Source: a bacterium (GTDB taxonomy: Bacteria; UBA10199; 2-02-FULL-50-16; JAJFLM01). From it: 64,000 nucleotides of DNA. Positions 2,871-44,427 of this stretch are shown piece by piece (the stretch's first letter is position 1; every line of letters begins with the position of its first letter). The translations under genes and the position numbers were made by a program. The DNA is taken from positions 2,277,060 to 2,341,059 of the forward strand of contig CBDCFN010000016.1 of the NCBI GenBank assembly GCA_965216315.1, read 5' to 3'. The notes under the pieces are model-generated. The model ran no database searches, was not told the DNA's origin, and saw only the letters and a program-made list of their open reading frames with translations.

Positions 2871-3695
2871 TTAGCGCAGCTGTTCGTGCAGATCTTCCGG
2901 ATCTTCGATCGGCTGCTGCGCGCCACCGATCTCATTCAATGATTTGATGACCTTAATAACGCTGTCTCTTTTGATCATCATTTTATCATCACCCTGTTCT
3001 TCTTCCTGCTCCGTAATACCGTAAGTTCCGGTGAACGGATTAGTCACCTCTTCGGCGCCTTGATTCTCCTCGGTGCCGCCAAAGCCTTCTGCAGGACCGG
3101 CCTGTTCCGTCTCGTCTTCACCTTCGCCCTCAGGATAATAGGGACCGCCGGTCCCTTCACTGGACCCGCCCGCCCGGGCGGCATAACTATCGCCTTGCTG
3201 GTAGAAGGAGATCTTGCCAATATCGTGGGTCACTCCGCGGCCTTCGAAACGGACATGAGGCGTATCATCATCGCCAAAGCCAACTCGAACCCGGGTGCCG
3301 TCAGGCATTTCAATATCAAACATATACTTGTCGCCAGACCGCAATCCAGGGATCGTAAAATCACAACTCGGCGTTACAGACGCACTTGTCTCTAAATGAG
3401 TGTGCACGTTCGTGGCAATAACCTTAACGCCCGCGCAGGCGTTCGGTAAATTCGGATCAAAACCGGGAATCTCCTGCATACGAGGAACGTTACCGGTCAC
3501 CGAAACGATGCCGGGGTTTTCGGCCTGCCCGGGATCTTGATCAGTCACCGAGGGACCGTTCCTGGGGTTACCCGCTTCGGTACCGCCTCGAAGTCCGGGA
3601 TTTCCTAAACCGCCACCACTACCCCCAGTATTGCAAGCAGTGACCGTTATCGCCACGACAGCCAAGGTTAAAACTAAATTAAATGCTTTCTTCAT
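2871..3695 (-). CDS. lipoprotein with GTEAGNP motif, coupled to upstream TIGR02147-like gene
   Basis: ORF 2871-3734; internal Met (rc ATG 3693-3695) gives lipoprotein signal MKKAFNLVLTLAVVAITVTAC; motifs GLGNPG and GGTEAGNP; 25 bp after stop of 3721-4569. Confidence 0.65.
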   Translation of the reverse strand: MKKAFNLVLTLAVVAITVTACNTGGSGGGLGNPGLRGGTEAGNPRNGPSVTDQDPGQAENPGIVSVTGNVPRMQEIPGFDPNLPNACAGVKVIATNVHTHLETSASVTPSCDFTIPGLRSGDKYMFDIEMPDGTRVRVGFGDDDTPHVRFEGRGVTHDIGKISFYQQGDSYAARAGGSSEGTGGPYYPEGEGEDETEQAGPAEGFGGTEENQGAEEVTNPFTGTYGITEQEEEQGDDKMMIKRDSVIKVIKSLNEIGGAQQPIEDPEDLHEQLR

Positions 3696-3720
3696 GATGT
3701 AACACCCTTTCGTACGCTTC

Positions 3721-4569
3721 TTACGCTCTTTCATGTTTTGTCACCGGCAGCATCTGGATACTGAGCAAGACAACATCATCTGGATTGTCATCGTCAGCAA
3801 CCAACTGGAGGATTTCGCGTCGAAACTCCTGAATGCGTTTTTTGATCTGCGGGACTCTTTCTTTAATAATTCCTAAAGTCAGAGCACTGACATCCCGTTC
3901 TTTTTGTTCCACCTCGGGAAGCTGCCCTTTTAATAAATCAAACAAACTCTGGTGATAATTTAAAAGCACGAGGGAATCGGCTTCGGCACCGCTCGTTACA
4001 AGCGGTGTCGCCTGTTTCCACTTATTGGTCACCGCATCACGCTCAATAAAATGAAGTCGCGCCAACAATTCGACGGACTTTTTTACTTGCGCGGGAGACA
4101 CTTCCGGCTGCAATCTTTTAGCCAACCACTCGATTGAACCGTCAAAATCCTTAGAAATGATCAACTCGCGCACAACCGGATGATACCAGGTTGAAAAATA
4201 CTCGTAACGATCCTGCGCAAGTGGCTCTAACTGACTGTAGCGTTGAGAACGAATCAACTTCTTATAGTAAGCGTTTTTTTCCGCGTGCGTTTTCGCCTGA
4301 TTAAAGAAGACGAGATTACGAAAGTGCTCGCGCTCCGGACGCTCCAGTTTGATTCCTTTAATGAATTTCTTGAGGCTTTCCTCAGTCAGGTTACGTTCGC
4401 CATCCATGACGAGTTTAAAAATATTGGAGGATTTAAAGCCGGCTTGCCGGGAAAAGACCCGATATGAAAACCCGTACCGCTCTTTGGCCGATTCATACCA
4501 ATCGCGCAAGAAGGCCCGGTAATCCATATAATCGAATACTGAGACGTTATTGTTGCCGTTGTTACCCAT
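3721..4569 (-). CDS. XRE-type HTH protein, TIGR02147/DUF4423-like paralog 1
   Basis: 282 aa; conserved N-terminal block DYRAFLRDWYESAKERYGFSYRVFSRQAGFKSSNIFKLVMDGERNLT (HTH_XRE-like, GxRNLS end); paralogous to 7373-8233, 10214-11062, 18151-18723, 43573-44427. Confidence 0.75.
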   Translation of the reverse strand: MGNNGNNNVSVFDYMDYRAFLRDWYESAKERYGFSYRVFSRQAGFKSSNIFKLVMDGERNLTEESLKKFIKGIKLERPEREHFRNLVFFNQAKTHAEKNAYYKKLIRSQRYSQLEPLAQDRYEYFSTWYHPVVRELIISKDFDGSIEWLAKRLQPEVSPAQVKKSVELLARLHFIERDAVTNKWKQATPLVTSGAEADSLVLLNYHQSLFDLLKGQLPEVEQKERDVSALTLGIIKERVPQIKKRIQEFRREILQLVADDDNPDDVVLLSIQMLPVTKHERA

Positions 4570-4751
4570 GTCACTTACCTATACGCTATTATACCCTGTA
4601 TACTGCCTGTTCTCTAGTTATCGTTCAGCGTCCGGCTTGAGTTGCCTCATTTTGACGAAATTTATCAATTTTTTGTATGCAGCAATCCCTATCTAACTAT
4701 CTGTTATTATTAATTTTTTAATTTCTATCTTATTTATGCCCTTTTTTTTGA

Positions 4752-4790
4752 GTCAACAGGCCCCCCTGTTGACCCAGGTCAACAGATAAT
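4752..4790 (+). promoter_or_regulatory. motif copy GTCAACAGG-cccc-CCTGTTGAC-ccag-GTCAACAGATAAT, upstream of 4873-5463
   Basis: three half-sites of the same 8-mer in alternating orientation about 80 bp upstream of the ORF. Confidence 0.45.
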
Positions 4791-4872
4791 CCTGACGAAA
4801 CGCAACGAAGACTCGAACGAATCCGATAAGTCTCAACGAAACGAACCGCAATTTCTGAGCATGGAGGCAACA

Positions 4873-5463
4873 ATGGGTGAACCAAGCACACTTCTTAATA
4901 TCTATAATAGCACCAAAGACTATATTTGGAACTTAGCCGCTGCGCAGCCCGTGGAAACGGATAGCGATGTCGCTTCCGGCGCTGATGACACGGCGCAAAC
5001 TCATGCGAATACGGATTTACTAGACAAGACCGTCACCCCCTGCAAAAAGGCAACTCCTTCGGTCGTTCGCCTTCATCAAGCCCCGATGCGCCCCGGCCAG
5101 CGGGACGATGGGGATACCGAATTCACCAATTTCATGAAACGACCCGGTTTCGGGCACGACGAACGCGTCGTCAGAGAGCTTGGTTATGCGTTTGACAAGT
5201 CGAAACTACCGGACACGATTACAGTCCGCATGCAAATATCGTCCAATGGAAGTATTGCGGTCGCCGAACTCCCGGAAGACTACAAACCACCGAAGGGCAT
5301 TTCACGGGAGGAAATGAACCACATCATTCATCGAGCGCTCGTGCCTTTTAGCGTGCCTAGCTATGCAGTGCCGGAAGCATCGCGAACGAATCCATGCGCG
5401 TGGATCACGCACACCATATCGCTGAATCCGACACCGGATCCGGCATCAGTACCTAACAGTTAA
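4873..5463 (+). CDS. hypothetical protein
   Basis: ORF 4861-5463; GGAGG SD at 4864-4868 favours the ATG at 4873 (MGEPST...); followed by an intrinsic terminator at 5498-5538; no recognisable domain. Confidence 0.5.
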   Translation: MGEPSTLLNIYNSTKDYIWNLAAAQPVETDSDVASGADDTAQTHANTDLLDKTVTPCKKATPSVVRLHQAPMRPGQRDDGDTEFTNFMKRPGFGHDERVVRELGYAFDKSKLPDTITVRMQISSNGSIAVAELPEDYKPPKGISREEMNHIIHRALVPFSVPSYAVPEASRTNPCAWITHTISLNPTPDPASVPNS

Positions 5464-5470
5464 AAACAGC

Positions 5471-5510
5471 TTACACATACGCACCCATGACACTCCGAAA
5501 AAGGTCATCC
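5471..5510 (+). repeat. direct repeat copy 1 (TTACACATACGCACCCATGACACTCC-G-AAAAAGGTCATCC)
   Basis: 40 bp, 39/40 identical to 5636-5675; runs into terminator hairpin. Confidence 0.7.
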
Positions 5511-5538
5511 TCTTCACCCCTTGAGGATGGCTTTTTTT
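5498..5538 (+). terminator. intrinsic terminator after 4873-5463
   Basis: CATCCTC...GAGGATG stem followed by TTTTTTT (5532-5538). Confidence 0.55.
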
Positions 5539-5548
5539 CGTTCACTCG

Positions 5549-5572
5549 TGTTGACTGACGTTAACAGATAAA
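5549..5572 (+). promoter_or_regulatory. motif copy TGTTGAC-TGAC-GTTAACAGATAA
   Basis: same architecture as 4767-4790 and 5711-5733; sits between terminator 1 and a candidate short transcript. Confidence 0.4.
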
Positions 5573-5635
5573 CTTTTTGCAACGCAACAGTGTGTCGGTA
5601 GGTACCGATAACTAATATACAACAAGTTATTCAAC

Positions 5636-5675
5636 TTACACATACGCACCCATGACACTCCAAAAAGGTCATCCC
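5636..5675 (+). repeat. direct repeat copy 2
   Basis: see 5471-5510. Confidence 0.7.
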
Positions 5676-5700
5676 TCTCCCCGGGGGGATGACCTTTTTA
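5662..5700 (+). terminator. intrinsic terminator, bidirectional architecture
   Basis: AAAAA-GGTCATCCC-tctccccggg-GGGATGACC-TTTTTACTTTT; perfect 9 bp GC-rich stem. Confidence 0.6.
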
Positions 5701-5710
5701 CTTTTAAAGG

Positions 5711-5733
5711 TGTTAACTTACGTCAACAGATAA
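5711..5733 (+). promoter_or_regulatory. motif copy TGTTAAC-TTAC-GTCAACAGATAAAG, upstream of the LysM gene
   Basis: about 100 bp upstream of ATG 5832. Confidence 0.4.
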
Positions 5734-5831
5734 AGCCTTCGTTAACGAATATTAAACAACATCGTTTGCGAATAACCGATAATACTACAGGTAGGCTAAC
5801 TGATAACTCGTTTCAGAAAGGTTGGGATAAC

Positions 5832-6179
5832 ATGTCGTATCAAATTCATACCGTCCGTCCGGGAGACACGTTGGCAAGCATTGCGCGGCACTACGGCGTC
5901 ACCATGCAGCAACTCCGGAAGCTGAATGTTCATCTCACGCAATCGAGTGGCTCGATTCCTCGTACGAGTGCAGGAAGTAAGATTTACGTCGGTGACGAAG
6001 TCCGTATTAAAGAGCTCCTTGAGTGCGGCCGCAACGTCGGGCCTTTTCAGTTGGGTTGTCGTTATGCGTCGAGTGACACATTAAAACTGGAGTTTGGTAT
6101 CAAGGGCGACGTAAGCACACAACCCCTTAATTCCTCAATCATGGTTGGCGCCAGAATCACTTTTTCCGGGGGCAACTAA
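5832..6179 (+). CDS. LysM domain protein
   Basis: MSYQIHTVRPGDTLASIARHYGVTMQQLRKLN is a canonical LysM motif; start taken at the internal ATG 5832 because the upstream part of ORF 5652-6179 crosses a terminator hairpin and a promoter-like motif. Confidence 0.6.
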   Translation: MSYQIHTVRPGDTLASIARHYGVTMQQLRKLNVHLTQSSGSIPRTSAGSKIYVGDEVRIKELLECGRNVGPFQLGCRYASSDTLKLEFGIKGDVSTQPLNSSIMVGARITFSGGN

Positions 6180-6188
6180 ATAGCTGAA

Positions 6189-7376
6189 CTAGGGTTGCGC
6201 CGTAAACGAAGTCGTTGCGGCCTTGGTCTTACCGCCCGTCCCGCAGTCGATTTCATCGACCTTGACCTCGTATTCGGTCCCGGCGGCAAAGGGGTCAACG
6301 CCGTGCTCGCACGCGATCTCATCCGCCCCCAGCTGATGGTTGGTGCAATCGACGTCGATCGCGAGTCCTTTGGGCTGAATAATCAGCGCGCTGGGAAAAT
6401 CGATCAGGCCAAGATGATATTTGCAGCCCAAGCGAACAATCACCTGTTCCGAGAGGCCTACGCCCGTCTGACCGTTGAAGGGATAAATTCTCAAGACCGG
6501 AACCATCCCCCCCAAATCTTCCTCACGACAAGGTGAGCCGGGATCATTGTCATCGATAAAACCATTGAGGTCACAATCCCGCTCCATTTGATCAAGTACG
6601 CCGTCGTTATCATCGTCCGTGTCGATCGCATCCGAGTCCCCATCCTCGTCGCGGTCCGTATAGATCTCCGGATTGTGTTCCGGAATCGCGTCAAGACCCT
6701 CGATCTGCACCCGACCTAAGTCAACGGGTTTCTCGGCCGGGAGCCCGACGTAAAACTCATTTTGGCGGATAAAGGCGCGCTGCTTACTGAGATGTTCCAT
6801 CTTCACGACCAGGCGCGCGACGAGGTCACCGGTCTTTTTTCGGAACTCCAGCATATAAGCGCGCTTGGTCGGCACAGCGAGCTTAAAAGAGCAATCCGAT
6901 TCAATTCTCGTAGTGAGCTCTTGTCGTGCAGAGTTGATCGCGGTCACGGTCGCGGCCGGACAGACCTTGACTACCGCAATTTTAGTCGCCTGCTCGGCCC
7001 ATTCCGTCCGGATGTTTACCAGACTCATCTGCATGAGCGGCCTGATATCCTTATACGGCAATTCGCGCACCGGGCTCTCGATCAGCTGCCGTTCCTCTTC
7101 CACGGGCTGCAGCTGACCGATGATCAGGCGTAGCGGAGCCGGATCCTGATCGTAAGGTGTTCCCGGCCGTGGCCCTGGTCCCGGATCAGTCGGCGTCGCT
7201 TCCGGATTCCCGAAATCCGTTCCCCCGAACTCTGGGTTCCCGAAATCCGTTCCGCTGATCGTTTGCTCGGTATCGACAATGTCCGGTGGTGCGGTATCCG
7301 CTCCCTGCGGCTGGACGCACGCGGCAATAAAAAAGACGAGCGCAATAGTACTGAGCAACCGGCTCCAGCAGGTCAT
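6189..7376 (-). CDS. lipoprotein with tandem GTDFGNPE motifs and thrombospondin-type-3-like Asp-rich calcium-binding repeats
   Basis: 395 aa; lipobox FIAAC; GTDFGNPEFGGTDFGNPE; DRDEDGDSDAIDTDDDNDGVLD and DCDLNGFIDDND; start overlaps stop of 7373-8233 by 4 bp; paralogous to 11507-12652. Confidence 0.7.
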   Translation of the reverse strand: MTCWSRLLSTIALVFFIAACVQPQGADTAPPDIVDTEQTISGTDFGNPEFGGTDFGNPEATPTDPGPGPRPGTPYDQDPAPLRLIIGQLQPVEEERQLIESPVRELPYKDIRPLMQMSLVNIRTEWAEQATKIAVVKVCPAATVTAINSARQELTTRIESDCSFKLAVPTKRAYMLEFRKKTGDLVARLVVKMEHLSKQRAFIRQNEFYVGLPAEKPVDLGRVQIEGLDAIPEHNPEIYTDRDEDGDSDAIDTDDDNDGVLDQMERDCDLNGFIDDNDPGSPCREEDLGGMVPVLRIYPFNGQTGVGLSEQVIVRLGCKYHLGLIDFPSALIIQPKGLAIDVDCTNHQLGADEIACEHGVDPFAAGTEYEVKVDEIDCGTGGKTKAATTSFTAQP

Positions 7377-8233
7377 GATCCACCTGCCTCGTCCGTCGGC
7401 TCTTCGACCATCGGGAATAAATAGATATTCAACTGCAAGACCTCCTCCGTCTCCGTATCATCGGCGACCAGCTTGAGGATGTCCTGTCGAAATTTTTCGA
7501 TTTTCTTCTTTATCTGGTGCAGGCGGGGCTTGGTTACTCCCAAGGTCAACGCCCCCATATAGCGCCTCGGTGCCGGAACGGCCCCAAGCAGGTGGGGGAG
7601 AAGCTTCATCATAGTCTTATGATAATTGAAAAGCTCAACGGATTCAATAGCGGTCCCGGGGGCGAGCACGGAAGAGCTCTGTTCCCAGCGTCCTGACGGG
7701 CTGCGATGGATCAATTCGAGCTTTTCCAAGAGCTCGAGCGAGGCTTCGACCTGCTCCAATTTGATCCGTTTTCCGAGCCGCGTCATCAACCATTCCGGGG
7801 TTCCATCATAGTCCTTGGCCGTGATGAGCTCGCGAATGACCGCATGGTACCAAGCCGAACAATATTCATGCTGATGGGCTCTAATCGGTTGTCTTTGTTG
7901 GTATTTTTTCGAACGCAGCAACAAGTTGTAGTAACGATCCTCTTCTTCATGGGTCTTGGCCTGGTTATACGCGACCAGATTGCTAAAAAAATCGGCGTCC
8001 TGGGCCGCCAGCTTCAAGGCCTTAACCGTCTTCGGCAAGGTATCCGCAGTTAAGTTCCGTTTTCCCTGAATGACCAACATGATGTAGTTGGAGGACTTGA
8101 ACCCGGCGCGTTCCGCAAATCTTCGATAGGACATGGAGGCCCGGGTCTTTTTCTTCGCCTCAAACCAGTCGCGCAAATAGGTACGATAATCGTTGTAATC
8201 GTAGAGATTTATGTCCTCTGCCGGCTCCGACAC
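7373..8233 (-). CDS. XRE-type HTH protein, TIGR02147/DUF4423-like paralog 2
   Basis: 286 aa; DYRTYLRDWFEAKKKTRASMSYRRFAERAGFKSSNYIMLVIQGKRNLT; shared central CSAWYHAVIRELI block. Confidence 0.75.
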   Translation of the reverse strand: MSEPAEDINLYDYNDYRTYLRDWFEAKKKTRASMSYRRFAERAGFKSSNYIMLVIQGKRNLTADTLPKTVKALKLAAQDADFFSNLVAYNQAKTHEEEDRYYNLLLRSKKYQQRQPIRAHQHEYCSAWYHAVIRELITAKDYDGTPEWLMTRLGKRIKLEQVEASLELLEKLELIHRSPSGRWEQSSSVLAPGTAIESVELFNYHKTMMKLLPHLLGAVPAPRRYMGALTLGVTKPRLHQIKKKIEKFRQDILKLVADDTETEEVLQLNIYLFPMVEEPTDEAGGS

Positions 8234-8298: not shown

Positions 8299-10185
8299 CT
8301 AACCCTCACCATTCGGGTCTTGGATGACCATGCGTGCCGCCGCCGTCCAATAGTCGACGTCAATCTCCGCATCGACGAGGAGGCGTGCCCCGGCCAAGGT
8401 CGTAATCTCCGGATGTTCGTGGAAGCGAATCGGGATCAACGGGATAAAGTAAGGTGGGTAACGCTCCAATACATAATCAAGCAGCTCCATTTTATCATCG
8501 TCGCTAAGCCACTCGAGTCGCGCTAACCCCAAAAACCGAAAGGCCTGTCGCAAGTTGAGCGGCTTCGGATAGAGCGACACATGGGCCGTTTGATAGATAT
8601 TCCATAATTCGTGGAGGTGGCTCTCGATCTGACTGCGCTGTTTCTGCGGCGAGGTCACGCCGCCACCTACGAAGATGATGTGCTGTCCCGGATAACGCAA
8701 AAACCGTTTGGCAAATTCCGCAAATTTCTCGACATACTTACCCGAGATATAAACAGACTCATCAAAAATAAACACTGTCGGTTGCACGATATCATCGATC
8801 TCGCGGATCAAGCCGATGGCCCGATCACCTCCCCCCATCGCCTGGGCATCAAGCGAAACGACTCGGTGCCCCCTTTCTGATAAGACCCGTTCCAAATTCC
8901 AGATGAGAACCTCACTTTTTCCGGAGCCCGAAAGGCCGGTCGAAGAGACGAGCTGGACACCATCCTCAATCGCGCTAACGACCTGATCGACTTCGGAAGC
9001 ACGATAGTCACGAAGCGACTTATCCGAAGGATCTCGATCGATCGACCGCAGCAGCCGACTATCCTGAGTACGAAAGCCCACCACATGATAAGGGGATCGC
9101 GGTTGAGTCCGCTGCGATAAGTCAGGAATCGGCGGGGTCTGACGCGGGCGCGGAAATAGGTGGGGTCGATAAATAATCAAGGCATTGCGCACCGTCTCCG
9201 GCAAATTGGTAAAGGGCATCCCGAGCACACCCCGTACACGACGGAGAATGCGGCCGCCGCGTCCCGCAATAACCGATTCACGAAAACGGCTGATAGTCTC
9301 ATCATCCTTTAAATCCAATTGCATCGTGTAGCTGGAGCGATCGAGCAAGAAGGCCAGCCCCGGACGGCGCGCCACGTCCACGACCTGATCAACCGTAAAC
9401 TGATAACCATGACGCTCAATAATCTCGGACACAACTCGCAGCCAGCCGAGTTTAATCCGGGGGAGCACAATAAACCCAGCGAGTTCGCGTGGACTCCTCA
9501 GTTCATTGTATTTATCTTGAGCAAAGGCCTCGCCGTAATCGCCCGCAAATTCCTTCAGTTTATTGCCGATGGCATTGCGAGTTCCCTGATCGATCGTAAC
9601 CCCATCAAAGAAGCGGTAGGCATAACGGCCGACCTCACGCGCTTCGATCTGGAAGTCACTCACCATCCCACTCTTGCGCGCAAAATGAAGTAGATTTTGA
9701 TGGATCTGCAGAGCCAGTCGGGACTTGGATCCCGTAATTTCTATGGATGTATCACTCCTTCGCGTCAGCGATCCGTCCGCATTCCGTTGCCAGACGTACG
9801 TACAACTTCCATTGATACTGTCACCATTCCCTTTAAACTCGGCGTGCGTCTCAAAAGTATTTTCGTTGTGTCTCGCCACACGCAGGCAATCAAGCTTCAA
9901 GGAAATGTTCATTCCTTCAAAGGCATTAATCAGATCCTGGATGGTGACCCGCTCCCCAAAGAATTGCGCAAACGCTTGATGCAAAGCGGGATGCCGCGAC
10001 GCATCCTCAATCGCATAGTCGACATCGTCGATCGATACGGAGCTGAGCCGGTGCGTTTGAATAGGAAACGGCCCCGAAGGAGGATTTAAAATATCGAAAG
10101 AATCCCCGGAGGCCAGAACAGTCGTCATCAAGCCTATTGAGGCTAAACCGTTCGTATAGGAGGACACCACAGGCAGCATACTCAC
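8299..10185 (-). CDS. large protein of unknown function with C-terminal P-loop kinase-like domain (APS-kinase/small-molecule-kinase-like Walker A)
   Basis: 628 aa; track start is GTG at 10183-10185, an ATG lies two codons in (10177-10179); hydrophobic N-terminal stretch; Walker A STGLSGSGKSEV, then VSLDAQAMGGG, Walker B-like VFIFDE; lies between two TIGR02147-like genes with 28 and 65 bp gaps. Confidence 0.65.
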   Translation of the reverse strand: MSMLPVVSSYTNGLASIGLMTTVLASGDSFDILNPPSGPFPIQTHRLSSVSIDDVDYAIEDASRHPALHQAFAQFFGERVTIQDLINAFEGMNISLKLDCLRVARHNENTFETHAEFKGNGDSINGSCTYVWQRNADGSLTRRSDTSIEITGSKSRLALQIHQNLLHFARKSGMVSDFQIEAREVGRYAYRFFDGVTIDQGTRNAIGNKLKEFAGDYGEAFAQDKYNELRSPRELAGFIVLPRIKLGWLRVVSEIIERHGYQFTVDQVVDVARRPGLAFLLDRSSYTMQLDLKDDETISRFRESVIAGRGGRILRRVRGVLGMPFTNLPETVRNALIIYRPHLFPRPRQTPPIPDLSQRTQPRSPYHVVGFRTQDSRLLRSIDRDPSDKSLRDYRASEVDQVVSAIEDGVQLVSSTGLSGSGKSEVLIWNLERVLSERGHRVVSLDAQAMGGGDRAIGLIREIDDIVQPTVFIFDESVYISGKYVEKFAEFAKRFLRYPGQHIIFVGGGVTSPQKQRSQIESHLHELWNIYQTAHVSLYPKPLNLRQAFRFLGLARLEWLSDDDKMELLDYVLERYPPYFIPLIPIRFHEHPEITTLAGARLLVDAEIDVDYWTAAARMVIQDPNGEG

Positions 10186-10213: not shown

Positions 10214-11062
10214 TTAAGCCTTGGGGCTCGTTAACGGAAACATGTGAATATTGACCTGAACGACCTCTTCCGGGGTTTCATCTGCGGAGACGAATTTGAG
10301 GATGTCCTGACGAAATTTTTGGACTTTTTTCTTGAGTTGCTCCAGCCTTTCTTTACGCACCCCGAGGGTCAATGCACTGATATCGCGTCGTTCTCCCGGT
10401 ACGGTATCAAGAACCTCCTTGGTCAACTCGAGCATATTATAATGATATGCAAATAATTCGATCGAGCGAACATCCGCCCCCGTCGAAACTAAACTATGGC
10501 TCTGTTTCCACCGACCTTTTTTATTGCGCTTGGCGAAGCCCAAGGTTTCTAATAATTCGAGAGAATGCGTCACATCGGCAACAGATACTTTCGGAAAAAT
10601 CCGTTCCGCAATCCATTCAGCAGTCCCGTCATATTCTTTTGCCGTAATGAGTTCGCGAATGACGGCATGGTACCAACGAGAGCAATATTCATATTGGTGC
10701 GTGCGTATCGGTTCTAACTGGTTATACTTTCTCGACCGCAGCATGCGTTGATAATAACGCTCTTTGTCCCGCTGATGTTCCTCCTGCGTATAATGAACCA
10801 GGTTTTCAAAAAATTCCGTCTCCTGCTTGTTCAGCTTGAGCGCCTTGGCCACTTTAGGAATGCTTTCTTGGCTCAAATTTCGCTTGCCCTGCAACACCAT
10901 CATAATGAAATTCCAGGACTTGAGGCCGGCACGCTCCGAGAACTTTCGATACGACATGCCCGCCCGGGTCTGTTTAGCAGCTTTGTACCAATCGTTTAGA
11001 AAATCACGATAATCTAGATAACTAAACGGGCTGACCTGATTGGCAATGCGTGACTGTGACAT
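10214..11062 (-). CDS. XRE-type HTH protein, TIGR02147/DUF4423-like paralog 3
   Basis: 282 aa; DYRDFLNDWYKAAKQTRAGMSYRKFSERAGLKSWNFIMMVLQGKRNLS; closest in sequence to paralog 5. Confidence 0.75.
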   Translation of the reverse strand: MSQSRIANQVSPFSYLDYRDFLNDWYKAAKQTRAGMSYRKFSERAGLKSWNFIMMVLQGKRNLSQESIPKVAKALKLNKQETEFFENLVHYTQEEHQRDKERYYQRMLRSRKYNQLEPIRTHQYEYCSRWYHAVIRELITAKEYDGTAEWIAERIFPKVSVADVTHSLELLETLGFAKRNKKGRWKQSHSLVSTGADVRSIELFAYHYNMLELTKEVLDTVPGERRDISALTLGVRKERLEQLKKKVQKFRQDILKFVSADETPEEVVQVNIHMFPLTSPKA

Positions 11063-11440
11063 AGGGGTTTCAATGATCTTATAACAACCCCCTCATCAAG
11101 TACACAGAAATTGGCATGATGCTTTTAAAGAAAAGAGGCTAATAATACCTCGCTTTTTAGCAGCGAGTTTTCTGTACACGCTCAATGCACAGAGCCTTGT
11201 TGCAGAGGACACCGGCAAGGCGGCACAGCAGGCAATGACGGGGCGACGACCGGAGAGACGCCGCCCCGCCCAGGGTTCAGCTAGCGGTATTGACCGATTC
11301 CAAGGAAACGGACGCACCCGACAACCACCAGCAGAGCCAGAGTGCCTACAGAGAGAAGAACTGATGACTCGCCCGAACAGTTAGTTATCGGATATATGAG
11401 GTCCGCGGATGCGGATTATCAGCAGAATATTCTATAATCA

Positions 11441-11456
11441 GTGTACTTTAGTACAC
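11441..11456. promoter_or_regulatory. palindromic operator-like site GTGTAC-ttta-GTACAC
   Basis: perfect 6 bp half-sites; preceded by TATAAT on the + strand; in the 445 bp region upstream of paralog 3. Confidence 0.45.
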
Positions 11457-14180: not shown

Positions 14181-14275
14181 GATCTTTCCTCCAGTTAGAA
14201 ATTTTTCGGTCCTACTAGTTATCGACTCCGGTGGGGTCTAAGTTGAGCGTCAATGAGGAATATTTACCTAAAACA

Positions 14276-14291
14276 GTGTACATGAGTACAC
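14276..14291. promoter_or_regulatory. palindromic operator-like site GTGTAC-atga-GTACAC
   Basis: 96 bp upstream of the 12702-14180 start, in an AT-rich promoter region. Confidence 0.45.
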
Positions 14292-14985: not shown

Positions 14986-15066
14986 TTTGAGTTAATATTT
15001 TAATTCTCCAATGTCGCTTATTATCGGGAGATGCCATTGAAACGTTTCGTCGGCGCCTAAATTAAC

Positions 15067-15082
15067 GTGTACCATGGTCCAC
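15067..15082. promoter_or_regulatory. palindromic operator-like site GTGTAC-catg-GTCCAC (variant half-site)
   Basis: in divergent region between 14455-14985 and 15144-15686. Confidence 0.4.
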
Positions 15083-15143
15083 TAGAATACCTACCACTCG
15101 ACAGATACAACACAACGCACACACAATCGAACCGATAAACTAT

Positions 15144-17333: not shown

Positions 17334-18124
17334 GAGCGTGCTATTTTAGCCTTTAAGATCTCTTTTTTGATAAGCGACCTAAACTCTTCGACTTTTTTAG
17401 CGATCTTTTGCTCACTCCCAAGGTCTTGCAAGGTCACTCGCTGCGGCGCTCCCCATCTCATCACTACTTTTGATGGAAACAGGAATGGTAGTTTCGGAAT
17501 AATCATGAACGGCGTTTTCACCAACGGCTTTACGAGACTATCGATAACAAATTTGTTTTGAATGAGCCAAATCTTAAGTGTTTTCTCCAAACCTGCATGC
17601 CCAATCGGAATGATCGATACTGACTCTTTACCTGTCTCCTTTAAATACTGCTTGGCAATCCTTAAGAAACCCGCATGAAAGGCCGCCACCGAGTGGCCGT
17701 TATTAAATGCTTTAACAAAATCCAATCCTTCCGGAAATAGTAAGATATGACGACGTTTCAGCGCTTGAACCCCTGTTGCAACTGAAAGCGGAACACATTG
17801 CCCTAACTGGAGATATTCTCTGAAAATAGGTATTTTGAAGGCCTCGCGCAACACCATCATATGAATCTTTCCAGCGCCTTGAGAGAAGACATGCTGACAC
17901 ACCAGCGGCGCCTCAAGGGTCAGAGCATGATTGAGAATGAAAATTACGTGCTCCTTTTTCGCCCGCACTATACCTTCCTCGACAGAACCTTCGTGCCGAA
18001 CACGATAGTGTAAGTCATGAAGATACTTAAGCCAGGATTTCGCATGGAGCTCGTAGACAGAATCGCTGACAATGGAATCGTCATAATTGAAGGAAAAAAC
18101 CTTTTTTAATAGTCGTGGCATCAT
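17330..18124 (-). CDS. lysophospholipid acyltransferase-like protein
   Basis: 264 aa; NH motif (ILNHALTLEAP) and LLFPEG motif typical of PlsC-type acyltransferases. Confidence 0.55.
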   Translation of the reverse strand: MMPRLLKKVFSFNYDDSIVSDSVYELHAKSWLKYLHDLHYRVRHEGSVEEGIVRAKKEHVIFILNHALTLEAPLVCQHVFSQGAGKIHMMVLREAFKIPIFREYLQLGQCVPLSVATGVQALKRRHILLFPEGLDFVKAFNNGHSVAAFHAGFLRIAKQYLKETGKESVSIIPIGHAGLEKTLKIWLIQNKFVIDSLVKPLVKTPFMIIPKLPFLFPSKVVMRWGAPQRVTLQDLGSEQKIAKKVEEFRSLIKKEILKAKIARS

Positions 18125-18150: not shown

Positions 18151-18723
18151 TCAAACTGGTCTGTCTAATTTTTTATATGTTAGCTTTTTTTCGTCTGGAA
18201 TCACGGGGATGAGTTCGATCGACATCGTCATCATCTCTTCAGGAACGACATCATCGTCGACTAAATTGAGAAGTTTACTCCGAAACTCTCGGATTATTTT
18301 TTTGAGTTGAGGCAAGTTATCTCTAATGATTCCAAAAGTAATCTCACTTAAATCGCGTTTACCCTGATCGAGGCTGAGTGTTTGAAGGCGATGCACATTA
18401 CGAATAGCCATCAGTTCTAGATAGTGTTCCTTAATTTCGTCAGGGCTCTCAGCCTGATTTAAGAAGACGAGATGCCGAAAATACTCCGCTTCGTCGTCTT
18501 CCAAGCGCAAACCTCGAATAAATTTTCTTAAACTTTTTAGTGTTAGGTTGCGGTCGCCATCCATAACGAGCTTGAGGATATTAGAAGAACCAAACCCGGC
18601 ATGTTGTGAAAAGATACGGAGAGAAAATCCGTAGGTCAGGCGCTTGGCACTCTCATACCAGTCCTTGAGAAAAGTCCTATAATCGAGATAATCATAGACA
18701 CAGATGTCGGATACAATATTCAT
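18151..18723 (-). CDS. XRE-type HTH protein, TIGR02147/DUF4423-like paralog 4, shortened (about 190 aa versus about 283)
   Basis: YDYLDYRTFLKDWYESAK...SLRIFSQHAGFGSSNILKLVMDGDRNLT conserved; central block present in the other four copies is missing; start taken at rc ATG 18721-18723; no lipoprotein partner downstream. Confidence 0.6.
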   Translation of the reverse strand: MNIVSDICVYDYLDYRTFLKDWYESAKRLTYGFSLRIFSQHAGFGSSNILKLVMDGDRNLTLKSLRKFIRGLRLEDDEAEYFRHLVFLNQAESPDEIKEHYLELMAIRNVHRLQTLSLDQGKRDLSEITFGIIRDNLPQLKKIIREFRSKLLNLVDDDVVPEEMMTMSIELIPVIPDEKKLTYKKLDRPV

Positions 18724-22337: not shown

Positions 22338-22353
22338 GTGGACCTAGGTACAC
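22338..22353. promoter_or_regulatory. palindromic operator-like site GTGGAC-ctag-GTACAC (variant half-site)
   Basis: 114 bp upstream of 22467-22880; a further GGTACACA half-site at 22368-22375. Confidence 0.4.
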
Positions 22354-22466
22354 TGAGAATTATTTCAGGTACACAACAACGCCTCCACTCAAACCGATAA
22401 AACCCAACGTAGTCATTTATAAAAACTAACAGAGAGTCATCAAATACTCATCGTTAAGGAGATCTC

Positions 22467-31786: not shown

Positions 31787-31950
31787 GATATTATATGTTA
31801 TAACTATTTGTTTTTATTTATTATTCTATCTATTCTATTTTTTATGTGATTATATATGAAGGAGTTAAAAGTACACGAGGCGAGAACGCAGCAACTTAGA
31901 ATTAATGCCGTCGATAAGACCTCGACTCAAGTGAGGGAGGCTTGTGTGGT

Positions 31951-41556: not shown

Positions 41557-41990
41557 TAGCCTTTGGCACTCCTTTTAAGTCGCCGTTTCTTAGGGGCCGG
41601 CGCCGGTTCTGTCGAACCACTGAGCGGATGAAATTTAGAAGCCACTCGATTGATGACGGTGATCAAGTCGTAAGGATAAAACGGCTTCGGCACGAGCTCG
41701 ACCTTGTCTTCTTCGCGAGCCAACTCTTTGAGATCCATCCGTTGCGGGCCACTGATCAACACCGTCGGATATTCATCGATAAAGGCCGGCCGGCCTTCCT
41801 GCTCGATCGCATTGCCATTAATGAGAATCACGTGAGGTTTCGCTCGGCGTTGGCGGGCATCCAGACCGTCTGCACTCTCGGCAAATTCAATCCGATAACC
41901 GGGCAGATCCCTGAAGAGCAGCCCATACATATTCTTGGCTAATTCCGAGCGATCAATGATCAAAAGACGCAAAGTAGAGGTGCGACGCAT
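41556..41990 (-). CDS. response-regulator receiver-like protein (divergent REC domain)
   Basis: LLIIDRSE...VILINGN pattern like CheY-fold receivers; basic C-terminal tail; overlaps PilZ start by 1 nt. Confidence 0.5.
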   Translation of the reverse strand: MRRTSTLRLLIIDRSELAKNMYGLLFRDLPGYRIEFAESADGLDARQRRAKPHVILINGNAIEQEGRPAFIDEYPTVLISGPQRMDLKELAREEDKVELVPKPFYPYDLITVINRVASKFHPLSGSTEPAPAPKKRRLKRSAKG

Positions 41991-42637: not shown

Positions 42638-42805
42638 AATTCGCCAGCGAAAGCATGAGCTTTCACTGGCCTTAGTTAAGGGGGGAGATAAGGGCCTCCC
42701 CCCCTAACAATTCCCCTCTGTCTTGTTCAGACGGGGGTACGGAGAAGTGTCACATCCTAGCGACGTTGAAGTATGTTGGCAAGTCAGGTGTTCATTTACA
42801 CACCC

Positions 42806-42826
42806 AAAAAGCCCCTCGCGGGGCTC
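42806..42826 (-). terminator. intrinsic terminator downstream of 42867-43409
   Basis: minus-strand GCCCC-GCGA-GGGGC hairpin followed by TTTTT. Confidence 0.55.
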
Positions 42827-42866
42827 TTGGGGTGTGTATTGGGTGATGTAAAGAAAAACTTTCAAC

Positions 42867-43572: not shown

Positions 43573-44427
43573 ATGATAGTACACGTGACCCCAGTCAAGC
43601 TCTTCGAATACCTCGATTACCGCGAATACCTCAAAGCTTGGTTTGAGGCAGCCAAACAGACACGGGCGGGGATGTCGTACCGGCTCTTTTCCAAGCGGGC
43701 CGGGCTCAAATCGACTAACTTCATCATGCTCGTCATGCAGGGCAAACGGAACTTGAGTGACAAAGCGGCCAAAATGGTCGCGAAAGGGCTCAAGCTGTCC
43801 AAGGAAGAGTCGGAGTTCTTCCGCTATCTCGTCCTCTTTAACCAGGCCGAGGCCCATAACGATAAGGCCCTGTATTATGAGCAGATGCTGCAATTTCGAC
43901 AGTACCGCAAGCACCGGCCGATTAGCCAGGAAGAGTATGCATACTGCTCTCAATGGTATCATGCGGCCATTCGCGAGCTGATCCTTGATCCTGATTTTGA
44001 TGGCAAGCCCACCTGGATCGCGGAACGGCTTGGCAATCGAATTAGCCGCGAGGAGGCTGCAGAATCGCTGAAGTTACTGCAAAAACTGAACTTTGTGCAG
44101 CGCACCCCATCAGGTCGCTGGCAGCAACAGGATGTGACGCTGACGGCGGGATCTCGGGTTGTATCTCTCGAGTTATTCAATTATCATTTAAGTATGATGG
44201 CGCTGTCCCCCCAGTTACTTGAAAGCCTGCCCGGGCAGCGTCGCGATATGAGCGCGGTCACGATGGGTATCGCAGCAGGACGTTTGCCTGAGCTCAAAAA
44301 GAAACTCCAGAAATTCCGTAAGAGTCTCCTCAAATTTTCCGCTGAAGCGGCCGACCCCGAGGAAGTGGTGCAGGTCAATCTCTACATGTTCCCCTTAACC
44401 GTCCCGAAAGGGTGCAAAGACTCATGA
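43573..44427 (+). CDS. XRE-type HTH protein, TIGR02147/DUF4423-like paralog 5
   Basis: 284 aa; YLDYREYLKAWFEAAKQTRAGMSYRLFSKRAGLKSTNFIMLVMQGKRNLS. Confidence 0.75.
   Translation: MIVHVTPVKLFEYLDYREYLKAWFEAAKQTRAGMSYRLFSKRAGLKSTNFIMLVMQGKRNLSDKAAKMVAKGLKLSKEESEFFRYLVLFNQAEAHNDKALYYEQMLQFRQYRKHRPISQEEYAYCSQWYHAAIRELILDPDFDGKPTWIAERLGNRISREEAAESLKLLQKLNFVQRTPSGRWQQQDVTLTAGSRVVSLELFNYHLSMMALSPQLLESLPGQRRDMSAVTMGIAAGRLPELKKKLQKFRKSLLKFSAEAADPEEVVQVNLYMFPLTVPKGCKDS

Follow-up and report, generated by a model that had tools for sequence, protein, structure and literature searches.

What is encoded between the open reading frame (ORF) at 4873-5463 and the downstream LysM gene of contig CBDCFN010000016.1? 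We analysed a 64-kb stretch of this bacterial contig (hereafter the window), in which an original prediction, made from the sequence letters, had placed a tandemly duplicated terminator-promoter module and a candidate small transcript at 5471-5733. The duplication was borne out, and it is better read as two sibling small-RNA gene copies, an arrangement also found in tandem on a related metagenomic contig (L054). Judging from its sequence, we consider it somewhat probable that a small regulatory RNA is present here as two sibling copies, within a small, locally regulated gene cluster.

By direct reading and repeat search, positions 5467-5496 and 5632-5661 are identical at 29 of 30 positions and 5498-5510 matches 5662-5674 throughout (13/13), with a lone 1-nt indel (GAAAAA vs AAAAA) between the matching blocks. 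The predicted 40-nt direct repeat (5471-5510 and 5636-5675, 39/40 identical) holds when this indel is counted as one difference. Within it, the 27-mer CTTACACATACGCACCCATGACACTCC has exactly 2 occurrences in 64 kb, where 0 are expected. Both repeat copies run into an intrinsic (Rho-independent) terminator, as had been proposed, each with a stable G+C-containing hairpin and a U run at the end of its unit. T1 (hairpin at 5497-5538, Ts to 5540, + strand; 82-nt fold of -21.5 kcal/mol, z-score -4.25) begins 34 nt past the stop codon (5461-5463) of ORF 4873-5463, in agreement with its assignment as the end of that message. T2 (hairpin at 5662-5699 and UACUUUU to 5706, + strand) has a 17-bp stem with a z-score of -6.2, and a simple terminator scan picked up its inner part alone. 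With their symmetric build (A run, hairpin, T run), both could in addition halt minus-strand transcripts that have passed through the LysM gene in antisense. A copy of the motif TGTTRAC-N4-GTYAACA-GATAA lies 3' of each terminator, 9-10 nt past T1 (5549-5571) and 5 nt past T2 (5711-5733); its presence after each had been predicted at about 10-15 bp. The window contains four copies of the motif, all within 3 kb (2839-2861 on the minus strand; 4767-4789, 5549-5571 and 5711-5733 on the plus strand), with 0 expected by chance. Since no occurrence is expected of either the 27-mer or the motif, the arrangement of repeats and motifs is not a product of chance.

The motif had been taken for a promoter (TGTTGAC-N4-GTTAACAGATAA). 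This assignment did not hold, as each copy sits at a fixed distance upstream of a separate core promoter with CGATAA as its -10 element; the palindrome is instead a putative upstream regulator site for a dimeric transcription factor. Operator A (TGTTGACCCAGGTCAACAGATAA, 4767-4789, +), which has an extra inverted half-site (GTCAACA) at 4753-4759, precedes core promoter A (GCAAC-N17-CGATAA, 4802-4829, +; predicted transcription start site (TSS) near 4836). Motif search located the other three: operator B (TGTTGACTGACGTTAACAGATAA, 5549-5571, +) upstream of core promoter B (GCAAC-N17-CGATAA, 5584-5611, +; predicted TSS 5617-5621), operator C (TGTTAACTTACGTCAACAGATAA, 5711-5733, +) upstream of core promoter C (ACAAC-N16-CGATAA, 5756-5782, +; predicted TSS near 5789), and operator D (TGTTGACTTGAGTCAACAGATAT, 2839-2861, -) upstream of core promoter D (ACAAC-N16-CGATAA, 2826-2800, -), which is predicted to drive the minus-strand ORF running from 2794/2745 to 2015. 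The operator-to-core gap of promoter C is 43 nt, one helical turn beyond that of A, B and D. Around operator A, the extra half-site completes a series of three alternating half-sites at 4753-4784 (GTCAACA-N8-TGTTGAC-N4-GTCAACA), located in the divergent intergenic region between a DUF4423 gene and promoter A; the first half-site pair also forms a 9-bp G+C-rich hairpin with a T8 run before it.

The RCAAC-N16/17-CGATAA class is strongly enriched in the window, with 12 sites found by a CAAC-N16/17-CGATAA scan against 0.31 expected and 0 of 100 shuffles reaching 12. The majority of inspected sites lie shortly upstream of ORF starts, and at least one (27419) may be inside coding sequence; examples beyond promoters A-D are 4618-4644 (-), 14219-14245 (-), 15113-15138 (+), 17522-17547 (+), 22374-22400 (+), 31892-31917 (+) and 41757-41782 (+). 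The class appears to be a general promoter type of the window genome, as in Bdellovibrio attack-phase genes. In Bdellovibrio bacteriovorus, the TSS-mapped attack-phase FliA promoter reads TTAAG-N16-CCGATA and drives small RNAs too (PMC3627812). The -10 element and spacing in the window equal those of this promoter: the sigma28/FliA -10 consensus (G)CCGATA(A) is matched by CCGATAA at 4823-4829, 5605-5611 and 5776-5782, and the corresponding sequence of promoter D is TCGATAA (2806-2800). A canonical sigma28 -35 box (TAAA or TTAAG, ~15-16 nt upstream) was not found in promoters A-D, which have GCAAC or ACAAC at the matching spacing, and we therefore call the class sigma28-like. All four units are thus predicted to share a sigma28/FliA-like core promoter and an upstream palindromic operator. 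Two other sigma factor readings of the motif were rejected. For sigma70, the plus strand of 4400-6500 contains no TTGACA-N17-TATAAT-like site and the TTGAC-to-GATAA spacing is just 10 nt; for sigma54 (GG-N10-GC), TTGCA occurs at site B only and, by reading, the GG is missing.

The distance between palindrome and promoter is constrained well beyond this locus. We compared 19 palindrome sites from 8 loci (the window and loci L001, L022, L053, L054, L055, L056 and L057), in which an RCAAC-like box usually lies 16-17 nt before CGATAA. The gap from 5 nt after the palindrome to CGATAA was 33-35 nt at 12 of the 19 sites and 43-44 nt at the remaining 7, with none between. Such a 10-bp spacing quantum is the pattern expected of an upstream site whose action depends on the face of the helix. 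With the TSS taken ~7 nt after CGATAA, the palindrome centres would fall near -60.5 and -70.5.

The position of promoter B also revises the candidate small transcript. A transcript of ~125 nt starting near 5573 had been proposed; because promoter B occupies 5584-5611, the orphan RNA is instead predicted to start near 5618 (TSS ~5617-5621) and to end at ~5700-5706, hence ~87 nt. This free-standing RNA, which we term small-RNA copy 2 (5618-5706, +), would extend from promoter B to T2. Small-RNA copy 1 (predicted, 5464-5540, +) comprises the 40-mer (5467/5471-5510) and T1 and, since ORF 4873-5463 is probably a real gene, would constitute its 3' untranslated region (3'UTR). By reading, no CGATA-type promoter is present in the 100 nt upstream of copy 1, which are the last 100 nt of the ORF, and its sharing of an mRNA 3' end and terminator fits the anatomy of a 3'UTR-derived small RNA. 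Copy 2 has its own predicted promoter and terminator, a length within the 50-300 nt of small RNAs and, as originally suggested, no ORF: the sole plus-strand start codons between 5573 and 5706 (5652 and 5689) read through T2 without a stop. Folding of the orphan interval, proposed earlier as a check, gave -27.4 kcal/mol (z-score -5.5), with a 5-bp mini-hairpin at 5624-5637, a ~24-nt unpaired C-rich stretch at ~5638-5661 (ACACAUACGCACCCAUGACACUCC) and the 17-bp stem of T2. The unpaired C-rich stretch (ACGCACCCAU..CACUCC) is common to both copies and lies directly 5' of the terminator. The locus contains two homologous copies with a conserved putative seed that is unpaired in the folds. No Rfam family was detected at gathering thresholds or at permissive E-values; matches in the window were three tRNAs, and the best sub-threshold hits were terminator look-alikes.

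Could the repeat instead be conserved for a peptide? An ATG lies inside the 40-mer in both copies (5487 and 5652), and the public annotation of the LysM gene starts at 5652. Translation of a small protein from this ATG is nonetheless barely credible: the 1-nt indel lies four codons past the ATG and puts the copies in different frames, no Shine-Dalgarno sequence occurs upstream, and the extension that follows in copy 2 has a G+C content at third codon positions (GC3) of 0.33 and a coding score near 0. Because the indel shifts the frame of the sole ATG, the conservation of the repeat is not protein-coding. We rejected the small-ORF reading on these out-of-register frames and on the lack of a stop before T2 in the copy 2 frame.

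Conservation between the two copies is unevenly distributed. Across the 40-mer we counted 0 mismatches in 39 positions, compared with 12 in the next 35 nt excluding the motif (Fisher p = 4e-5), where the spacer and the loop and right arm of the terminator lie; past the operator the two units are barely alignable. Purifying selection acting on the unpaired stretch and on the left arm of the terminator would account for this pattern. It also bears on the possibility that the interval is a by-product of segmental duplication, in which a ~165-bp piece (3'UTR, terminator, operator and promoter) was copied, promoter B fires into T2 to give a functionless short transcript, and sequence identity reflects recency or gene conversion. 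The units are indeed collinear, their starts lying 162-165 nt apart; the flanking genes, both lineage-restricted, suggest a fast-evolving region; and target scans for the RNA found none. Against a mere by-product are the uneven divergence itself and the fact that all elements of promoter B are intact while the sequence between them has fully diverged from A and C. Given that the C-rich blocks and terminator also recur at the equivalent position of L054, and that tandem promoter-short RNA-terminator units are found in both L054 and L022, we regard simple duplication as rather unlikely.

These related loci were identified through the divergent TIGR02147/DUF4423 gene at 3721-4569, used as an anchor because the flanking proteins are lineage-restricted. 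Orthologues with 64-75% identity were found at L054, L022 (metagenome-assembled genome OFTM19), L055, L056 and L057, and palindrome-plus-CGATAA promoters are present in all five orthologous loci. In L054, whose DUF4423 orthologue is 75% identical, the layout is as in the window, divergent from the DUF4423 gene. Unit 1 has a palindrome and ACAAC-N17-CGATAT, and unit 2 a degenerate palindrome and ACAAC-N17-CGATAA; in each, ~85 nt lacking any credible ORF then lead into a terminator. Beyond unit 2 come a third palindrome, a promoter and a protein gene. By alignment, unit 2 has ACGCACCUAU, CACUCC and the arms of the terminator (GCCAUCC/GGAUGGCUUUUUU) in common with the window copies; the ACGCACCYAU and CACUCC blocks and the terminator of the window 40-mer recur there. 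Its local alignment beat 500 of 500 shuffles, and three stem pairs show compensatory changes relative to the window. Unit 1 carries CACAU-CGCACCCCAU and folds like the window copies (5' hairpin, unpaired C-rich stretch, terminator); its sequence similarity is marginal, being equalled by ~4-5% of shuffles. L022 is syntenic by tblastx (DUF4423 orthologue 72.6% identical by tblastx, 71% by BLASTP) and contains two tandem units that are built in the same way, located elsewhere in the locus and carrying CACACUCCC and CAACUCCCCC. In a shuffle test these units had no significant sequence similarity to the window copies and are analogous only. Small-RNA copies were absent or unseen in L055, L056 and L057. 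A motif scan of genome contigs gave 51 matches, of which 49 were unrelated sites in unrelated taxa, and a scan of metagenomes gave two, one plausible (L053) and one inside coding sequence (L052).

The comparison also helps to evaluate a role in conditional termination, in which an RNA or an RNA-binding protein would bind the 40-mer, as in ribonucleic antiterminator (RAT) systems, and control read-through from 4873-5463 and promoter B into the LysM gene, with B and C as tandem LysM promoters. The left arm of the terminator, AAAAAGGUCAUCC, falls within the conserved block; a weak 5-bp helix (AUGAC/GUCAU, by reading) is a possible competing alternative to it; and all units are oriented toward LysM. 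Yet T1 and T2 are very stable, with 15-17 bp stems, long U tails and z-scores of -4 to -6, a complete operator and promoter in each downstream unit would make read-through control redundant, and the units in L054 and L022 keep the unpaired C-rich stretch while their terminators differ. We consider this alternative improbable. Still less likely, to the point of being remote, is a dispersed repeat or mobile element in place of a gene, whether like repetitive extragenic palindromic (REP) sequences, like a miniature inverted-repeat transposable element (MITE) or at a cassette boundary. The units are structured, repeated, intergenic and next to lineage-restricted ORFs, as such an element might be, but the palindrome keeps a fixed distance to promoters of a class that ordinary genes use. 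The integron attC and MITE readings were rejected: by reading, the palindrome does not fit attC cores (GTTRRRY), just two adjacent copies are present in 64 kb, and no terminal inverted repeats or target duplications surround the unit.

How might a pair of small RNAs operate here? In the mechanism that we propose, one regulator acting at the palindromes would turn on four sigma28-type promoters together, and with them four transcription units: 2794/2745 to 2015 (-), 4873-5463 (+), the orphan RNA, and LysM (5832-6179, +). Promoter A would produce the 4873-5463 mRNA, whose 3'UTR (5464-5540) would be small-RNA copy 1 and end at T1; promoter B, straight after T1, would produce copy 2 alone (~5618-5706), ending at T2; and promoter C, straight after T2, would produce the LysM mRNA. 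Two of the products would carry an identical unpaired C-rich stretch beside a terminator, a layout classically seen in base-pairing small RNAs. This stretch would be the working part, a seed that pairs with target mRNAs at G-rich sites (GGAGUG, AUGGGUG) in their ribosome-binding or start regions. The likely action would be occlusion of translation start regions, as with the UCCC motifs of LhrC, and is proposed because the reverse complement of the C-rich stretch, GGAGUGUCAUGGGUGCGU, resembles a ribosome-binding site followed by a start codon.

Several results weigh against two sibling small RNAs. The TSS of the orphan RNA was placed from promoter geometry alone, and the RCAAC -35 box of its promoter departs from that of canonical sigma28 (TAAA/TTAAG). 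Identity across the 40-mer could also be explained by gene conversion or by a partial duplication of more recent date. Homology of the RNA at the sequence level was found in one related genome only (L054), the L022 units being analogous. The covariance analysis that had been suggested did not separate the family from generic terminators: a model built from the three clear copies scored L054 unit 1 at 28.3 bits and unrelated bidirectional terminators at 26 bits, and so mostly sees the terminator. Lastly, no outstanding mRNA target emerged within the 64-kb window, as seed scans of all 40-nt windows and of 63 start regions gave nothing above background and the 4873 start region ranked 13 of 63.

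Two further sites resemble parts of this system. In L022, a palindrome-driven gene of OFTM19 encoding 441 amino acids has the ribosome-binding region AAUGGAGUGUAAGUUAUGGG (1406-1450, -); the GGAGUGU in it, a perfect complement of ACACUCC in the small-RNA-like units, is a possible target site. In the window, the C-rich stretch CAUCACCCAAUACACACCCCAA precedes a terminator hairpin at 42798-42850 (-), near tRNA-Ser genes, and matches the small-RNA model weakly (14.5 bits, E 0.33); it is possibly another small RNA or merely a 3' end.

The closest analogues of the proposed pair are sets of sibling small RNAs, namely PrrF1/PrrF2, OmrA/OmrB and LhrC1-5. PrrF1/PrrF2 of Pseudomonas and OmrA/OmrB of E. 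coli are adjacent head-to-tail pairs in which both members are free-standing, with their own terminators and the same regulator site, bound by Fur and OmpR, respectively. The window copies are likewise head-to-tail duplicates, with an identical core and divergent remainder as in OmrA/OmrB, but differ from these pairs in sequence, regulator and sigma factor, and include a 3'UTR copy. Copy 1 by itself is more like the 3'UTR-derived small RNAs CpxQ, SroC and DapZ in sharing the mRNA terminator and having a conserved seed just upstream of it; by reading it lacks an internal promoter, and a free-standing sibling with identical seed next door is unusual for this group. LhrC1-5 of Listeria monocytogenes are homologous copies with their own promoters and terminators, under one regulator with an element upstream of ~-53, and their UCCC motifs pair with Shine-Dalgarno sequences (PMC4132741). 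Multiple copies, own promoters and terminators, an upstream regulator element and a C-rich unpaired motif, for which pairing is here a prediction, are common to both systems. They differ in that we found no sequence or Rfam relation, that the window promoters are sigma28-like with a palindromic operator, and that one window copy is a 3'UTR. The FliA-driven small RNAs of the Bdellovibrio bacteriovorus attack phase offer another parallel, in the CCGATA -10 element, the N16 spacing and the use of a sigma28-type promoter far beyond flagellar genes (PMC3627812). The likeness lies in the promoters, no similarity to the sequences of those RNAs being known, and the window differs in having RCAAC rather than TTAAG at -35 and an extra upstream palindrome.

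Both protein genes that flank the interval are restricted to this lineage. ORF 4873-5463 (+, 196 amino acids) has GGAGG 5 nt before its ATG and a coding score of +0.13 in frame versus -0.37 out of frame. A word-indexed homologue search among 5.8e9 proteins returned only the self match; an exhaustive search with HMMER added a single, distant homologue (34% identity, E 4.7e-6), whose 1.8-kb contig (L058) contains no terminator-promoter module. Looking up the exact sequences of both flanking proteins, with either start, and of protein P0001 retrieved no contig. The LysM-domain protein gene starts at ATG 5832 (5832-6179, +, 115 amino acids), and its domain (Pfam LysM, 1e-12, residues 6-36) begins at residue 6 counted from this start; a word-indexed search again gave the self match only. 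The call at 5652-6179 had been suspected of over-extension, and we agree: 5652-5831 has a GC3 of 0.33 and a coding score of 0.01, versus 0.57 and 0.20 for 5832-6176. The public annotation (175 amino acids) is 60 codons too long, and the extension spans T2, operator C and promoter C. By reading, no other in-frame LysM start follows the predicted TSS. Downstream, just 9 nt separate the end of the LysM gene (+, 6179) from the convergent gene at 6189-7376 (-), and no terminator lies in this gap.

Which regulator might bind the palindromes? The divergent gene at 3721-4569 (-) is a co-localised candidate; its product is a full-length match to TIGR02147 (278.2 bits against a cutoff of 50) and also matches Pfam DUF4423 (2.3e-35). 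Together with the promoters of CCGATA type, the TIGR02147 and DUF4215 genes make the lineage look Bdellovibrio-like. Five TIGR02147/DUF4423 paralogues lie in the 64 kb (3721-4569 (-), 7373-8233 (-), 10214-11062 (-), 18187-18720 (-) and 43594-44400 (+)). At least three are followed by a same-strand, non-homologous and possibly lipoprotein-like gene (2871-3734, 6189-7376 and 8299-10185), and the copy at 18187-18720 is without the middle third, roughly residues 122-215 of the query. The TGTTGAC-N4-GTCAACA palindrome is not carried by the other paralogues of the window. The more general pattern GTNNAC-N4-GTNNAC has 9 sites in the window. Each is a near-palindrome that CGATA follows at 39-41 or 49-51 nt, and two classes can be told apart: GTTGAC/GTCAAC at this locus and GTGTAC/GTACAC at 11441-11456, 14276-14291, 15067-15082 and 22338-22353. 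The 11441 site is upstream of another DUF4423 paralogue. These two classes and the placement of the 11441 site are suggestive of paralogue-specific operators. The class-2 promoter at ~11391 is ~320 nt upstream of the paralogue start at 11062, leaving room for a long leader or an unannotated element (11062-11391, -), and the 15067 palindrome serves two divergent promoters, with CGATAA at 15026 (-) and 15133 (+).

The half-sites also vary among distant loci. At L057 150-172 (-), L055 3875-3892 and L056 2015-2032 the half-site is altered (TGTCCAC-N4-GTGGACA, GTCCACA and CGTTGAC..GTCAACG) while the spacing to CGATAA is kept, a possible co-evolution of operator and regulator. Two of these loci encode stand-alone RNA polymerase alpha C-terminal domain (PF03118) proteins of 94-99 amino acids (L055 2013-2297 (-) and L056 4-303 (-)), and the L055 gene is preceded by a CGATAA promoter with a palindrome (CGTTGAC-N4-GTCAACG at 2500).

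By analogy, a CRP/FNR-type factor is a second candidate binder. Class I activator sites of CRP and FNR (TGTGA-N6-TCACA and TTGAT-N4-ATCAA) are centred at -61.5 or -71.5. The TTGAC-N4-GTCAA core has the same geometry and predicted centres near -60.5 and -70.5, likewise one helical turn apart. The window sites differ in being on a sigma28-like and not a sigma70 promoter, and the co-localised candidate is the TIGR02147/DUF4423 protein rather than CRP/FNR. A broader model, which we put forward tentatively as possible rather than probable, is that the palindromes are operators of paralogues in the large TIGR02147/DUF4423 family, each with its own GTNNAC-N4-GTNNAC variant and each acting on sigma28-type promoters from ~-60/-70. 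One such regulon would then have the sibling C-rich small RNAs as its post-transcriptional arm, and a young protein gene would have captured one copy as its 3'UTR.

If transcribed as predicted, the two copies would represent a small-RNA family not described before, from a lineage that has been sampled poorly, and, if the reading is true, a clean natural case of two routes to one small RNA, a free-standing gene and an mRNA 3'UTR, side by side. The by-products of the analysis may prove more useful than the small RNA itself. The promoter grammar, in which RCAAC-N16/17-CGATAA is combined with GTNNAC-N4-GTNNAC palindromes at phase-locked spacing, would help to call start codons and operons more accurately in such genomes. 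A role as transcription factor is a testable candidate function for the uncharacterised TIGR02147/DUF4423 family; if the broader model is true, this locus would be the first in a Bdellovibrio-like lineage to link the family to an operator, a regulon and a mode of action.

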